In this document: positions 10,511 through 31,935 of the stretch, piece by piece
How positions within the stretch are numbered: position 1 is the first letter of the stretch
Layout of the letters: each line of letters begins with the position of its first letter
Assembly: GCA_042565955.1 (NCBI GenBank)
Contig: JBHORG010000004.1
Location: 31,677-95,676 of the forward strand
Origin: Thermoproteota archaeon
GTDB taxonomy: Archaea > Thermoproteota > Bathyarchaeia > Bathyarchaeales > Bathyarchaeaceae
DNA length: 64,000 nucleotides
Direction of reading: 5' to 3'
Notes under the pieces: model-generated
What the model was told of the DNA's origin: nothing
The model's database searches: none
The model's input: only the letters and a program-made list of their open reading frames with translations
Program-made: the position numbers and the translations under genes

Positions 10511-11867
10511 ATGCCCAAAAAATTAACCATCGATGAACTTCTTGAAAAAGCGAAGAAACCAGCCAAACTGGCGTTAGCTTATCATCCGTTCTATGGCGGT
10601 AAAGTCCAAGTAATGCCAAAATGTGTTATTCGGGGTTCACAAGACTTTGCTATATGGTACACTCCGGGCGTAGCTGCTTCATGTAAAGCCATAAAAATGA
10701 TCCAGAACAAGTTTTCACTCATACGAGCCGATGGAACTACGTGGCAATTGTTAGCGATGGAACACGGGTCCTAGGTTTGGGAGACATAGGGCCAGAAGCT
10801 GCAATGCCAGTAATGGAGGGAAAAGCTTTACTCTTTAAGTATCTGGGTGGAGTAGACGCTTTTCCAATTTGTTTGACGATTAAGAAAACGGAAGATCTAG
10901 TCACATCATGTAAGTGGTTGGAGCCCACATTTGGAGGAATAAATTTAGAAGACATAACCAAACCCAAATGGTTCCATGTTTTGAAGGATACTCGTCAAGA
11001 ACTAAACATTCCTGTGTGGCATGATGACCAGCAAGGGACGGCTACAGTCATTTTAGCTGGACTCATTAATTCTTTGAAGCTTGTGGGAAAAAGTATGAAC
11101 GAAGAAAAAATTGCTATGCTTGGCGTGGGAGCAGCCAACATGCGAACTGCATTGGTTCTTATGCGGGTAGGCGTTAAGGCTAGTAATATTATAATGGTTG
11201 ATCGGAAGGGGATTCTTCATCCAAATAGAACTGATTTGGAAGCTAGGACAGAAGAGAATCCGTGGAAGTGGTGTTTCTGTCTTGAAACTAATACTGAAGG
11301 ACTTACTGGTAGTGCTGCTGAAGCGTTGAATGGTGCAGATGTTGCAATAGCTGCTTCTAAACCAAACTCTGACACGATCAAGAAGTCTTGGATCAGTAGT
11401 ATGGTGACTGATTCGATTGTTTTTGCATGTGCGAATCCTATTCCCGAGATATGGCCTTGGGACGCAAAAGAGGCGGGAGCAAAGATTGTAGCCACCGGGA
11501 GGTCTGATTTCGCCAATCAGATAAATAATTCATTGGGTTTTCCAGCTATCTTTAGGGGGGTTTTGGATGATAAGGCAACGACTGTTACCGATGATGTGTG
11601 TATAGCTGCGGCGAATGAATTGGAATGTTTTGCAGAGGAGCGAGGAATCAATGAGGAGAACATAGTGCCGAAGATGGATGAGTGGGAGGTTTTCCCCAGA
11701 GAGGCTGTGGCTTGTACTTTGGAGTCAATTAAAGAGGGGGTGCTAGAGTTAAACCGAGTAGACAAGAACTATGGGAGCGTGAAAATAGTATCATAAAGAA
11801 TGCTCGAGAATCAACGAAGCTACTGAAGAAGAAAGGGCTTATTGTGTCTCCTCCTGAGGATATTTGA
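10511..11867 (+). pseudogene. NAD(P)-dependent malic enzyme with two 1-nt deletion frameshifts
   Basis: YTPGVA, SDGTRVLGLGDIG, GGINLED, HDDQQGTA, ATGRSDFANQINN. Frame breaks at A5 (10693-10697) and near G5 (11736-11740). Adding one base at each gives AIKNDPEQVF...WNYVAIV and EGVARVKPSRQELWE...PPEDI*. Confidence 0.85.
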
Positions 11868-28051: not shown

Positions 28052-28757
28052 TTACGGTTCAAATCCATGCTTCCCAATTAAAGGTACGAATGTAACTCCT
28101 CCCAAGTTCTCTTCAATGATTTTTCCATTCATTTTTTTGATTCTAACCAATGTTTGGTAGAACTGGACACCACCAACCGGAACAAGAAATATTCCTCTAT
28201 TATCTAATTGTTCAACCAATGGCTTTGGGACCGCCGGAGCAGCGGCCACAACTAAGATGCGATCATATGGAGCCTCTTCCTGATACCCCAGTGTTCCATC
28301 CTGATGGATTACTGTAATTCTGTTTTCATACCCTGCCTTCGCAATGTTTTTTTTGGCAAAGGTAGCTAATTCAGGGATTCTTTCCAGTGTATAGACGTGC
28401 CCCCACTCTTCTTTCGTTTCATTCGAGGGAGCCACTATCTCGGCAATTGTGGATGCGTGCCAGCCTGAACCTGTACCCACCTCTAGAACCTTATGTCCCA
28501 CTTCCAGTTCAAGAGCTTCATCCATTATGGATACCATGTTTCGCCCAGTTGACCGCACTGTGTCAACTGAGAGGCGCGGAAGCTGTTTGCCCTGAGCCTA
28601 TTGGAAGCGGGCAGTCCATGGCCGCATTTGCTTTCACGTTTTCAGGAAGAAACGGTTCTCTTGGAACATGACGCAACGCCCTAATAACATTTGGCGAGCA
28701 GAGAATGTTACGTCTAACCAATTTTTGGATCAGTCCTTCCCAATCCTGGTGATTCAT
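28052..28757 (-). CDS. pcm: Protein-L-isoaspartate O-methyltransferase, two exons: 28757..28571 and 28539..28052 (224 aa after splicing)
   Basis: VPREPF, PIGSGQTASAP|HMV, VLEVGTGSGW, DGTLG...APYDRI, VTFVPLIG. 187+488=675 nt, in frame only after removing 28540-28570. Confidence 0.92.
28540..28570 (-). other. 31-nt bulge-helix-bulge (BHB) intron in the pcm mRNA
   Basis: mRNA: G-CGCC-UC^U-CAGUUGAC-ACAGUGCG-GUCAACUG-GGCG-AA^A-C. 4-bp helix CGCC/GGCG, two 3-nt bulges, perfect 8-bp intron stem. Confidence 0.88.
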
Positions 28758-28938
28758 TTTTCACTCCTCCTTATAATATGTCAATCCGTGTGCATTAAGA
28801 GTTTACTTGGCATCTAGTTTAGAACGTAATGATATTTTTGAGAATCAACCTGAAGCTACTTTGGTCCAAAATTCAGTATGTTTTATAATGTGGTATCCTT
28901 TTTGAATAGGAGTTGTCGTCAACTTTCAGTGAGGTTTA

Positions 28939-30450: not shown

Positions 30451-31935
30451 TTATCCTTTTATTACTCCCATTGGAACCAAGCGCGCAACACGGGTTGCGA
30501 TTCCTATTTTATCACTCACATCAACTACTCTATTTACATCCTTGTATGCCAAATCTGCTTCTTCGGCTAAAACAATAGAACTGGCTGATCTGACAATAAT
30601 TCCTCGGCTTTCCAGAGCCTGTTTCACTTCTCCTCCCCAGAACCTTCGTTTCGCAGCTGATCTACTCATCATGCGACCGGCTCCATGAGCCGTGGACCCA
30701 AAAGAAACGTCCATAGCCTTAGTAGTTCCAGCCAGCAGCCACGAGCTTGTACCCATACTTCCTGGAATTATGACAGGTTGCCCCACAGAACGATAATCTG
30801 CAGGAATATCCATGTGTCCCGGTGGGAACGATCGTGTTGCTCCTTTTCTGTGCGTCCAAACCTTAATTCGTTTTCCATCTATAGTATGTTCTTCGCCTTT
30901 TGCGATGTTGTGGGCAACATCGTAAATCAGATTCAAACCCAAATTGTCGGCTGACCTCTTAAGAACCTCTTCGAAACTCTGACGAACCCAATGAGTAATA
31001 ACTTGGCGATTAACGAAAGCATAGTTGACAGCGCAAGCCATAGCTTGGTAATAGTCTTGTGCTTCATTGCTTGTGGCTGGTGCACAGGCCAGTTCCCTGT
31101 CTGGTATAGAAATGTTATATTTTTGGATTGCTCGTTCCATGACGCGAAGATAATCTGAGCAGACTTGATGTCCGAATCCGCGAGAGCCACAATGAATCAG
31201 AACAGTAACTTGCCCTTCATGAGTGACCCCAAATGTTTTAGCCACTTTTTTGTCGAATATTTTGTCAACCTTTCCAATTTCTAGGAAGTGGTTTCCTGAT
31301 CCAAGGGTACCGCTTTGAGGAAGACCCCTTTGTTTGGCTTTGGATGAAATTTTGTCAGGGTTTGCGCCCTCCATACACCCCTCTTCTTCACAGTGTTTGA
31401 TATCTTCAGGACGCCCAAACCCCTTCTCTACTGCCCACGTTACCCCCTCAGTGACCAGATGTTCAAGTTCATGTATGTTCAGTCGGAAGTCTTTACGGCA
31501 GCTACCTAGTCCGCTGGGAATATTCTTGAATATTGCGTTGGTGAGAGAAGCAAGGAATGGCCTGACATCGCTTTCAGAAAGATTTGTTGATAATAGGCGG
31601 ACCCCACAGTTGATGTCGTAGCCTACTCCCCCTGGGCTTAAAACTCCTTCATTAAAGTCTGTAGCGGCGACTCCACCTATCGGAAAACCGTATCCTTCGT
31701 GACCATCAGGCAACGTGATCGCATACTTGTAAATGCCTGGTAGGTGTGCAACATTCGCACATTGATTAAGTGTTCGGTCTTGTTTTATTTTTTCTATGAG
31801 TTGGTTGTCTGCAAAGACCATCCCAGGAACACGCATACCTGATTTGTAACTTTGGGGTATTCGCCAGGTGTAATTATCGATTTTTTCGATGGGAACCGAT
31901 GGTGCTCGCTCTCGAAATTTTCTTTGTCTGCTCAT
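30451..31935 (-). CDS. rtcB: RNA-splicing ligase RtcB
   Basis: PDGHEGYGFPIGG, GYDINCG, GSGNHFLE, HCGSRG, HRKGAT, PGSMG, STAHGAGR. Confidence 0.98.
   Translation of the reverse strand: MSRQRKFRERAPSVPIEKIDNYTWRIPQSYKSGMRVPGMVFADNQLIEKIKQDRTLNQCANVAHLPGIYKYAITLPDGHEGYGFPIGGVAATDFNEGVLSPGGVGYDINCGVRLLSTNLSESDVRPFLASLTNAIFKNIPSGLGSCRKDFRLNIHELEHLVTEGVTWAVEKGFGRPEDIKHCEEEGCMEGANPDKISSKAKQRGLPQSGTLGSGNHFLEIGKVDKIFDKKVAKTFGVTHEGQVTVLIHCGSRGFGHQVCSDYLRVMERAIQKYNISIPDRELACAPATSNEAQDYYQAMACAVNYAFVNRQVITHWVRQSFEEVLKRSADNLGLNLIYDVAHNIAKGEEHTIDGKRIKVWTHRKGATRSFPPGHMDIPADYRSVGQPVIIPGSMGTSSWLLAGTTKAMDVSFGSTAHGAGRMMSRSAAKRRFWGGEVKQALESRGIIVRSASSIVLAEEADLAYKDVNRVVDVSDKIGIATRVARLVPMGVIKG

Follow-up and report, generated by a model that had tools for sequence, protein, structure and literature searches.

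A candidate BHB intron within the pcm coding sequence, present at the same site in Bathyarchaeia and other Thermoproteota

The pcm gene of this archaeon lies on the minus strand of the window, by which we mean the whole 64,000-nt stretch of DNA that was analysed. It is broken at 28570..28540 by 31 nt that carry an in-frame TGA and shift the reading frame. We read these 31 nt as a BHB intron within the pcm coding sequence, at a probability of roughly 0.88. The initial annotation had proposed BHB-type splicing of the pcm mRNA, and every prediction of this proposal that sequence comparison could address was borne out: the insertion site, the covariation and lengths of the inserts, selection on the exons, the intronless alleles, the enzymes encoded in the genome and its cbf5 gene.

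By family profile, the host gene is pcm, for protein-L-isoaspartate O-methyltransferase (PIMT; PF01135, PCMT). A putative Shine-Dalgarno-like GGAGG (28766..28770), read from the sequence, precedes its start. The first exon (28571..28757) runs from the ATG at 28757..28755 through 62 codons, up to a Pro codon ending at 28572, and adds the C at 28571 as the first base of a His codon. The second exon (28052..28539) supplies bases 2-3 of that codon and 161 codons from the Met at 28537, followed by the stop at 28054..28052. In the list of open reading frames, the gene appears as an upstream frame of 64 aa (28563..28757) and a downstream frame of 168 aa (28052..28558); the latter begins at a GTG inside the insert, and the true downstream exon begins at 28539. 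The upstream frame matches positions 4-60 of the PF01135 profile (E 1.4e-9), and the downstream part from Met 28537 matches positions 61-208 (E 5.5e-40). Jointly they cover positions 4-208 of 210, with 38.5 + 137.8 bits and a cut-off of 20.3. Because positions 4-60 and 61-208 abut without a gap, the break is a clean insertion into one gene. The sequence, the reading frames and the profile matches all bear out the split of pcm as it had been annotated. With the query used, this was the sole PIMT-like gene in the genome, and the second match was a 276-aa frame at E 1.2e-4. We also considered whether the insert might be a repeat or a mobile element and rejected this, since blastn-short of the intron against the genome returned no other copy.

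The BHB anatomy first described by eye is indeed present at 28576..28539. The exon bases CGCC (28573..28576), which belong to an Ala and a Pro codon, form the 5' strand of the central 4-bp helix, and the intron bases GGCG (28542..28545) form its 3' strand. Bulge 1 is UCU (28570..28572) and bulge 2 is AAA (28539..28541). Within the intron, the 5' strand of the inner stem (28562..28569) pairs over 8 bp with the 3' strand (28546..28553), and the two enclose an 8-nt hairpin loop (28554..28561) that varies in sequence and length across relatives.

In the pre-mRNA, the four exon bases would pair with the GGCG of the intron, leaving a 3-nt bulge on either side of the central helix and the 8-bp intron hairpin inside. 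EndA would cut after the second base of each bulge; by the BHB rule, the predicted cuts fall between 28571 and 28570 on the 5' side and between 28540 and 28539 on the 3' side. RtcB would then join the exons and would probably circularise the intron. As the annotation had foreseen, uniting the C that follows the Pro codon with AC would recreate the CAC His codon of the motif SAPHM and a pcm frame of 224 codons. Cleavage, ligation and translation of the spliced pcm mRNA are what we infer from sequence comparison. Among the sequencing runs listed for this locus, none was an RNA run.

The exon-side helix is weak, which had also been recognised. Among 79 distinct introns, the number of contiguous pairs is 1 in 43, 2 in 35 and 3 in 1. 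Since this helix is mostly 1-2 bp long, the 3' bulge is expected to be poorly closed. The pcm motif fits a relaxed form and not the canonical hBHBh' form. A further pairing that had been suggested farther out, AGCUUC with GAAGCU, was rejected: its cells are 77% paired, but they show no covariation, and the pairing is dictated by conserved codons.

Thermodynamic folding was computed for the single sequence at two lengths. The 45 nt of the core adopt a helix, a 3-nt bulge and a stem at -17.1 kcal/mol (z -2.17), and 5/200 shuffles were as good. In an 81-nt context, the minimum free energy structure is a 10-bp hairpin that absorbs part of a bulge and the helix, in preference to the BHB (z -1.44; 17/200 shuffles as good). 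Single-sequence energy is therefore not decisive, and it is the comparative data that decide.

Same-site inserts of 23-57 nt were found in 94 distinct sequences, with the metagenome set excluded from this count. Their hosts belong to Bathyarchaeia and to four further families of the same phylum. Loci were picked in part by an open-frame proxy, so the proportions that follow are not representative: inserts were present in 21/30 loci of the genus, family and order, in 25/41 loci from named genome records (plus 2 among truncated loci), in 47 of the 60 loci chosen at class level, in 14 loci from four families labelled "same phylum" and in 65/80 metagenome contigs. McrA was not found in 5 genomes from families outside Bathyarchaeia.

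All 94 distinct sequences share the arrangement helix(4)-bulge(3)...helix(4)-bulge(3) with an inner stem. The search pattern presupposed this spacing of helix and bulges, and a free MAFFT alignment (A1) gives the same columns. Bulge 1 has three unpaired bases in 94/94 sequences, of which the middle base is always C and the first is A or U; bulge 2 is A-N-A in every one. The inner stem forms 8/8 pairs in 60 of the 94 sequences and 7/8 in another 20. The intron of locus L054 has one stem mismatch.

Changes on both sides occur at 8/8 pairs of the inner stem, where 95.6% of cells are paired in A1 and 95.4% in a second, model-fitted alignment (A2). The covariation score of A1 was reached by 0/500 shuffles, and 87.6% of its cells were paired, compared with 18-36.5% in slid controls. 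In A2 (79 introns), 97.2% of cells were paired versus 20-36% when slid, and 200 cells were changed on both sides; because A2 was fitted to the model structure, its counts of pairs are biased in favour of it, whereas the MAFFT-made A1 is free of this bias. An alignment of pcm loci had been suggested as a check on the annotation, and it brought out same-site insertions with compensatory stem changes both in Bathyarchaeia and beyond.

In the central helix of the 79 intron-bearing sequences, every cell is paired (100%), and there is one pair with changes in both strands. The helix strands vary together with the synonymous Ala codon (n = 94). CGCC/GGCG, in which an Ala codon GCG goes with GGCG, was counted 77 times, and CACC/GGUG, in which GCA goes with GGUG, 14 times. 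The mixed combination CGCC/GGUG (GCG with GGUG) was seen 3 times and CACC/GGCG (GCA with GGCG) 0 times. Intron-bearing sequences use only GCG or GCA for this Ala, and intronless ones also use GCT and GCC. The Pro codon is CCA or CCU in 79/79 intron-bearing sequences; in intronless sequences it is CCC in 8, CCT in 6, CCG in 3 and CCA in 3. The His codon is likewise CAC in 79/79 where the intron is present, and CAC in 16 and CAT in 6 where it is absent. Synonymous codon choice at the splice motif is constrained only where the intron is present.

These patterns bear on whether the two halves of pcm might function as a split enzyme, in which pieces of 64 aa and 161 aa are translated separately and assemble into an active methyltransferase, with the hairpin serving as a spacer or a terminator-like element. 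A Met codon does stand directly after the insert, and the helix 3' strand GG(C/U)GA, read by eye, loosely resembles part of the putative Shine-Dalgarno sequence that precedes the true pcm start. Gene callers, too, treat the downstream piece as a separate gene; of the 120 best database clusters, some 95 have a length of 157-171 aa. However, a break at this point removes the His of the conserved SAPHM motif. Nor would a spacer call for exact 3-nt bulges, for a covarying stem or for a 4-bp helix in step with a synonymous Ala codon. The end of the exon-1 frame is not fixed either, since the frame meets a stop inside the intron in 64/79 cases and runs on in the rest. We consider separate translation of the two pieces highly unlikely.

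Intronless alleles argue against separate pieces as well, since they are uninterrupted genes nested among intron-bearing ones in the pcm gene tree. Within the same genus, such alleles have only the His codon at the intron site, and their sequence is the predicted splice product. The tree was built from all 44 full-length rows that were distinct, two of them long bacterial rows of unsure place. As it is rooted arbitrarily, it gives only an indication of how many intron changes took place and in which direction. In the metagenome set, 15/80 loci were intronless, and even the nearest of them reached no more than 93.5% exon 2 identity with an intron-bearing locus; when a spliced copy was sought among these 80 contigs, no intronless locus could be read as such. 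Judged by its distribution, which spans several bathyarchaeial orders as well as four families that do not belong to the class, the pcm intron is old and has apparently been lost precisely several times.

Another scenario accepts that EndA cuts the pcm mRNA but holds that the exons are mostly not rejoined. The message would then be switched off or degraded, and little or no full-length protein would be made. There is a precedent for cutting of this kind, as yeast TSEN cleaves mRNAs without splicing them (PMC10485636). For pcm we regard it as very improbable. The initial annotation had pointed out that relaxed selection on both halves, as in a dead gene, would speak against splicing. No such relaxation was seen. 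In intron-bearing genes, exon 1 has a median dN/dS of 0.20 and exon 2 one of 0.09, against 0.195 and 0.12 where the intron is absent; both exons are under purifying selection, which is no weaker in the genes with the intron. In row L058 of this analysis, a stop was found in the part of exon 1 that had been extrapolated three codons upstream of the match; the other rows were without stops. Joining after a BHB-rule cut always restores the frame and SAPHM with its His codon, in 79/79 distinct introns and in 12/12 introns from families outside the class. The gene is also the only pcm detected in the genome with the query used, and RtcB is present, both of which favour rejoining.

Translational recoding, in which ribosomes would hop over the hairpin or shift frame without any RNA splicing, is extremely unlikely. 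A stable hairpin does follow directly after the take-off site, and cbf5 cases were once mistaken for frameshifting (PMC2738675). However, the inserts range from 23 to 57 nt, their length is not a multiple of three in 70/94 and all three length classes occur. Recoding does not explain why two bulges of 3 nt should be spaced by exactly 4 bp or why helix and codon covary, and matching take-off and landing codons were not seen by eye in the window. A dead gene or an assembly artefact is barely credible: a single genome alone would resemble a frameshifted gene, and this assembly does contain two real-looking frameshifts elsewhere, but the insert recurs in dozens of independent assemblies, exon dN/dS is low with no stops outside row L058, and the intron is unchanged (0 differences) in a 682-nt contig independently built from run X1, which is possibly the genome's own sample.

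The machinery expected for splicing of the pcm intron is encoded in the same genome. Two EndA paralogues of 185 and 188 aa both score above the TIGR00324 cut-off. Their genes are in the regions C4:27991-28248 and C11:129261-129515 of the genome. One is nearest to the PDB chains 2cv8_A, 3p1z_B, 3ajv_B and 2zyz_B, which are catalytic chains of crenarchaeal two-subunit enzymes. For the other, 5x89_A and 1a79_A are the nearest chains, and it matches beta-subunit models weakly. The gene count and these PDB similarities suggest that EndA is of the broad-specificity two-subunit form. A gene for the RNA ligase RtcB lies in the window on the minus strand, with a PF01139 match extending over 30454..31764 (G000:C44:62130-63440; E 1.2e-174). 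It is 1.7 kb from pcm. ARAGORN called an intron in 17/44 tRNAs.

The cbf5 gene of this genome carries a perfect BHB intron of 21 nt in its catalytic Asp codon (G000:C11:302500-302520), which matches the site described in PMC2738675. The same intron is present in 29/30 relatives' cbf5 loci. We considered whether the pcm intron might be a member of the cbf5 intron family. Its host gene is pcm and the cbf5 intron is a separate element, although the two are alike in mode.

To look for further introns, we combined a structural BHB scan of the genome with an ORF-fusion test, which gave 1212 raw candidates and a shortlist of 99. After 12 candidates had been read in detail and the junction peptides of 138 more had been skimmed, only cbf5 and pcm were convincing. 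The other candidates looked like ordinary gene boundaries, as judged from recognition of the proteins. A candidate in an M20-type peptidase gene (C25 ~10779-10840) and one in a radical-SAM gene, at a T7 run (C92 ~14550), were rejected as plain frameshifts. The codon-usage filter lost pcm itself, so this census is unreliable and incomplete. A search of the protein database for a full-length, near-identical PIMT gave as its best match a protein of 161 aa at 91% identity.

The closest known counterpart is the BHB intron in cbf5 pre-mRNA of Crenarchaeota (PMC2738675; the first report is cited there and in PMC7714728). As in pcm, that intron is short and lies within the coding sequence, after the first base of the codon for a key residue, which is Asp in the case of cbf5 and His in that of pcm. 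In both genes the central helix is built with exon bases, and presence is patchy with precise loss. The link of the cbf5 intron to a two-subunit EndA probably extends to the pcm host, to go by its gene count and PDB similarity. The hosts differ in function, since pcm encodes a protein-repair methyltransferase whereas cbf5 encodes an RNA pseudouridine synthase. On the exon side, the helix has 1-2 bp in pcm but 4 bp in the cbf5 of the same genome. The pcm intron occurs in Bathyarchaeia and four other Thermoproteota families, whereas the survey in PMC2738675 covers Desulfurococcales and Sulfolobales. For cbf5 there is RNA proof; the pcm intron is predicted from sequence comparison.

Other systems are more distant. 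In Haloferax volcanii, the archaeal splicing endonuclease likewise acts on an RNA that is neither tRNA nor rRNA, namely the HVO_1309 mRNA with a BHB intron in its 5' UTR (PMC7714728). In that case, however, the intron sits in an untranslated leader and interrupts no reading frame, and the host is a euryarchaeon with a homodimeric enzyme. BHB processing of pre-tRNA and pre-rRNA by EndA and RtcB shares the geometry, the cut rule and the expected enzymes with pcm. The pcm substrate differs in being a translated mRNA without a tRNA body to aid recognition, and its splicing would therefore compete with ribosomes. Eukaryotes splice HAC1 and XBP1 mRNA in an IRE1-dependent manner, and animals use an RtcB-type ligase for it. 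This system, which is mentioned in PMC13149111, resembles the one proposed for pcm in that protein enzymes remove a short mRNA intron without a spliceosome and the reading frame is changed. It differs in its endonuclease and its motif, and there splicing is a regulated stress switch.

To our knowledge, no archaeal gene other than cbf5 has come to be known, in over twenty years, for a BHB intron in its coding sequence. The annotation had been made with no described pcm case in mind, and our literature search likewise did not find a pcm intron; the additional files of PMC2738675 and the supplementary tables of PMC7714728, which lay outside its scope, might list other predicted mRNA introns. PMC7714728 states that only the cbf5 example had been reported besides its own 5'-UTR case, and a 2023 review counts two archaeal genes and expects more (PMC10485636). 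A book chapter (reference 50 of PMC2738675) is said there to predict introns in other protein genes. Taken together with the comparisons above, pcm looks like only the second gene, after cbf5, with a BHB intron in its coding sequence.

Because most such genes are annotated as a truncated protein of 157-171 aa, pcm is under-called in Bathyarchaeia genomes, and similar hidden introns elsewhere may be missed by automatic annotation. The 94 natural variants form a series for studying how a relaxed motif is recognised on a translated RNA. We also offer a speculation that is probably wrong, namely that protein genes once carried a whole set of EndA-spliced introns, older than the split of the Thermoproteota classes. 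The introns of pcm and cbf5 would be survivors of that set, and the pcm intron would have been kept because splicing gates PIMT production. If this were true, full-length PIMT would be produced only while EndA and RtcB have capacity to spare, and protein repair would be tied to RNA processing and repair. A second host gene, interrupted at one site in several orders and in more than one class, would mean that mRNA splicing by way of EndA is more than the peculiarity of a single gene.

The gene pcm, which encodes protein-L-isoaspartate O-methyltransferase (PIMT), lies on the minus strand of the window and starts at an ATG (28757..28755) that we read from the sequence and that has GGAGG ahead of it. 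From this ATG the frame runs for 62 codons and ends at a Pro codon, where a 31-nt insert follows (28570..28540, minus strand) that carries an in-frame TGA and shifts the frame. The ORF list holds an upstream ORF of 64 aa (28563..28757) and a downstream ORF of 168 aa (28052..28558), both on the minus strand, with the GTG start of the latter falling within the insert. In a Pfam search, the upstream ORF matched positions 4-60 of profile PF01135 and the part from Met 28537 matched positions 61-208; this is therefore a single gene, cleanly interrupted. Re-reading the window bore out the bulge-helix-bulge (BHB) anatomy proposed in the initial annotation: on the minus strand, CGCC (28576..28573) pairs with GGCG (28545..28542) as the central helix, the bulges UCU and AAA flank its strands, and an 8-bp inner stem joins 28569..28562 with 28553..28546. 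A 45-nt core folds into this layout (z -2.17; 5 of 200 shuffles equally stable), whereas an 81-nt context favours a longer hairpin (z -1.44), so the single-sequence fold is suggestive and not decisive.

The source genome, G000 (2.04 Mb in 92 contigs, with the window on contig C44), has Candidatus Bathyarchaeota, Bathyarchaeia and Bathyarchaeum MAGs as its nearest named genome records. Among 30 pcm loci obtained from 60 relatives of the same genus, family or order, 21 had an insert of 29-33 nt at the same site, and the remaining nine were intronless, with just a CAC or CAT His codon there. Loci from the named genome records had the insert in 25 of 41 cases and lacked it in 11; five were cut or partial, and two of those five show it. 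A class-wide search found pcm in 340 of 401 genomes. Upstream regions taken after that search had the insert in 47 of 60 cases and not in 13, proportions that are not representative because the regions were picked partly for a short open frame. In metagenome contigs the insert was present in 65/80 and absent from 15/80. Within the 60 regions, it occurred in the same-order families f1, f2, f3, f5, f6 (2/4), f9 (13/16), f10, f11 and f12, and also in f20 (5/5) and f26 (1/1), which share the class and fall outside the order; the loci sampled from f13, f14, f18, f22, f25 and f36 had no insert. The introns of f20, a GC-rich family (loci L121-L125), are longer, at 31-57 nt, and their inner stems are extended or branched. 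From 34 introns a covariance model was made and applied to 151 genomes of the phylum; its scores were 60-73 bits in 13 genomes of three families related only at phylum level (f47, 8/8; f58, 3/3; f62, 2/2) and 38 bits in one f45 genome. On inspection, all 14 loci proved to have this intron, identically placed, with lengths of 23-34 nt.

With the metagenome set left out, 94 distinct intron sequences were available. All 94 have a 4-bp helix between exon C(G/A)CC and intron GG(C/U)G, a 3-nt first bulge after the exon strand with C as its middle base, and, preceding C and ATG, a second bulge of A-N-A. The inner stem is paired at 8/8 positions in 60 sequences, at 7/8 in 20 and at fewer in 14. If each bulge is cut behind its second base, the joined exons encode the conserved SAPHM motif in 79/79 distinct introns and in 12/12 further ones from the f47/f58/f62/f45 set. 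The initial annotation had suggested aligning pcm across Bathyarchaeia, and this did reveal same-site inserts with compensatory stem changes. In a free MAFFT alignment of 34 sequences, all eight inner-stem pairs showed changes on both sides, 95.6% of cells were paired, and none of 500 shuffles reached the covariation score; pairing fell from 87.6% to 18-36.5% once the partner was slid. A model-fitted alignment of 79 introns, which leans towards the modelled structure, gave 97.2% of cells paired (20-36% when slid) and both-side changes in 200 cells. Covariation also links the central helix to a synonymous position in the exon, the Ala codon: GCG accompanies intron GGCG in 77/94 and GGUG, through a G-U pair, in 3/94, while GCA accompanies GGUG in 14/94 and GGCG in 0/94. 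The exon-side helix is as weak as first described, at 1-2 bp in the 79 distinct introns, which makes this a relaxed motif at the 3' site. Pairing further out, also proposed initially, is seen in 77% but does not covary. These comparisons strongly suggest that the pcm insert is a BHB intron, which would be spliced by the cbf5 mechanism.

A dead gene would be expected to show relaxed selection in both halves, and this is contradicted by median pairwise dN/dS values of 0.20 for exon 1 (298 pairs) and 0.09 for exon 2 (132 pairs) in 33 distinct intron-bearing genes. Intronless pcm (11 rows, two bacterial) gave 0.195 and 0.12. One row of this analysis (L058) had a stop in exon 1 where that exon was extrapolated upstream. 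A pcm query of G000 found no second PIMT, the other match being a 276-aa frame (E 1.2e-4). Intron lengths span 23-57 nt, with 70 of 94 not divisible by three, and the exon-1 frame runs into a stop within the intron in 64/79, so the insert does not serve as coding sequence. Synonymous choice near the junction is restricted solely in intron-bearing genes, where Pro is CCA or CCU in 79/79 and His is CAC in 79/79. Intronless genes use CCC (8), CCT (6), CCG (3) and CCA (3) for Pro, and CAC (16) and CAT (6) for His. Across loci L001-L136, the third base of the Pro codon (the first of the bulge) was C or G in 0/79 intron-bearing versus 11/20 intronless genes, a hint of selection against a pairing-capable base at this position.

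The cbf5 intron served as an internal control. G000 carries a 21-nt intron with an in-frame TAA at C11:302500-302520 (L075/L137), outside the window, which forms a perfect canonical BHB (outer and central helices of 4 bp each; bulges UGA and AAA). Removing it restores GTLDPKV, and the cut separates the first base of the catalytic Asp codon from the second, the position at which the available text of PMC2738675 places the crenarchaeal intron. The intron is present in 29/30 relatives' loci (L138-L166; only L162 is intronless), including genomes with an intronless pcm. Its presence in G000 and these relatives thus points to mRNA splicing of a known kind in this lineage. Bathyarchaeia are not listed among cbf5-intron lineages in the portions of the literature covered. 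In two same-order genomes, G044 (C11:292014-294371) and G043 (C66:1837-4203), the cbf5 match is split by ~1.4 kb within one open frame (797 and 873 aa, respectively); such a split resembles a sizeable in-frame insert, which may be an intein.

The gene for RtcB, the expected RNA ligase, lies at 30454..31764 on the minus strand, like pcm, at a distance of 1.7 kb, with two plus-strand ORFs between. ARAGORN called 17 of 44 G000 tRNA genes intron-bearing. Two paralogues of the splicing endonuclease EndA (185 and 188 aa) both score above the endA model cut-off. The nearest chains are 2cv8_A, 3p1z_B, 3ajv_B and 2zyz_B for one, which we take to be catalytic subunits of crenarchaeal two-subunit EndA, and 5x89_A and 1a79_A for the other. 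In the parts available, PMC5829648 and PMC2724299 say that relaxed motifs are cut solely by two-subunit and epsilon-type enzymes. We infer that the G000 enzyme is probably of the type cutting relaxed motifs.

On the pcm gene tree, whose root is arbitrary, intron presence needs seven changes, and well-supported branches require at least four of these; L010, without the intron, groups as sister to L012, which has it, and L072 and L060 are likewise sisters. As most of the deep branches carry the intron, its repeated and precise loss is the simpler reading.

A structural and ORF-fusion scan of G000 recovered cbf5 and pcm, and the candidates read included no further convincing BHB intron; the scan was crude, its coding filter dropped pcm, and it sets no upper bound. 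Two candidates look like frameshifts rather than introns, an M20-type peptidase gene (C25, ~10779-10840, minus strand; break just after a GRG motif) and a radical-SAM gene (C92, ~14550, plus strand; break at a run of seven T), and may be sequencing errors or real. We found no report of a pcm intron in the full-text literature, with subscription journals and supplementary files outside the search. As far as the available text goes, one source states that, its own 5'-UTR case aside, the cbf5 intron was the sole one reported (PMC7714728, 2020), another puts the number of archaeal genes at two and anticipates further ones (PMC10485636, 2023), and a third mentions unconfirmed predictions in other genes, citing a book chapter (PMC2738675). 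The pcm intron would work by the mechanism already known from cbf5; its host gene, lineages and breadth of conservation are what is new here.

Among the best 120 clusters similar to exon 2 in the public protein collection, ~95 are of 157-171 aa, 24 of 215-224 aa and one of 194 aa. The ~95 short clusters are exon 2 called alone, starting at the Met after the intron, and the source records of several give the name protein-L-isoaspartate O-methyltransferase. The pcm gene is systematically mis-annotated, and current gene callers miss its intron.
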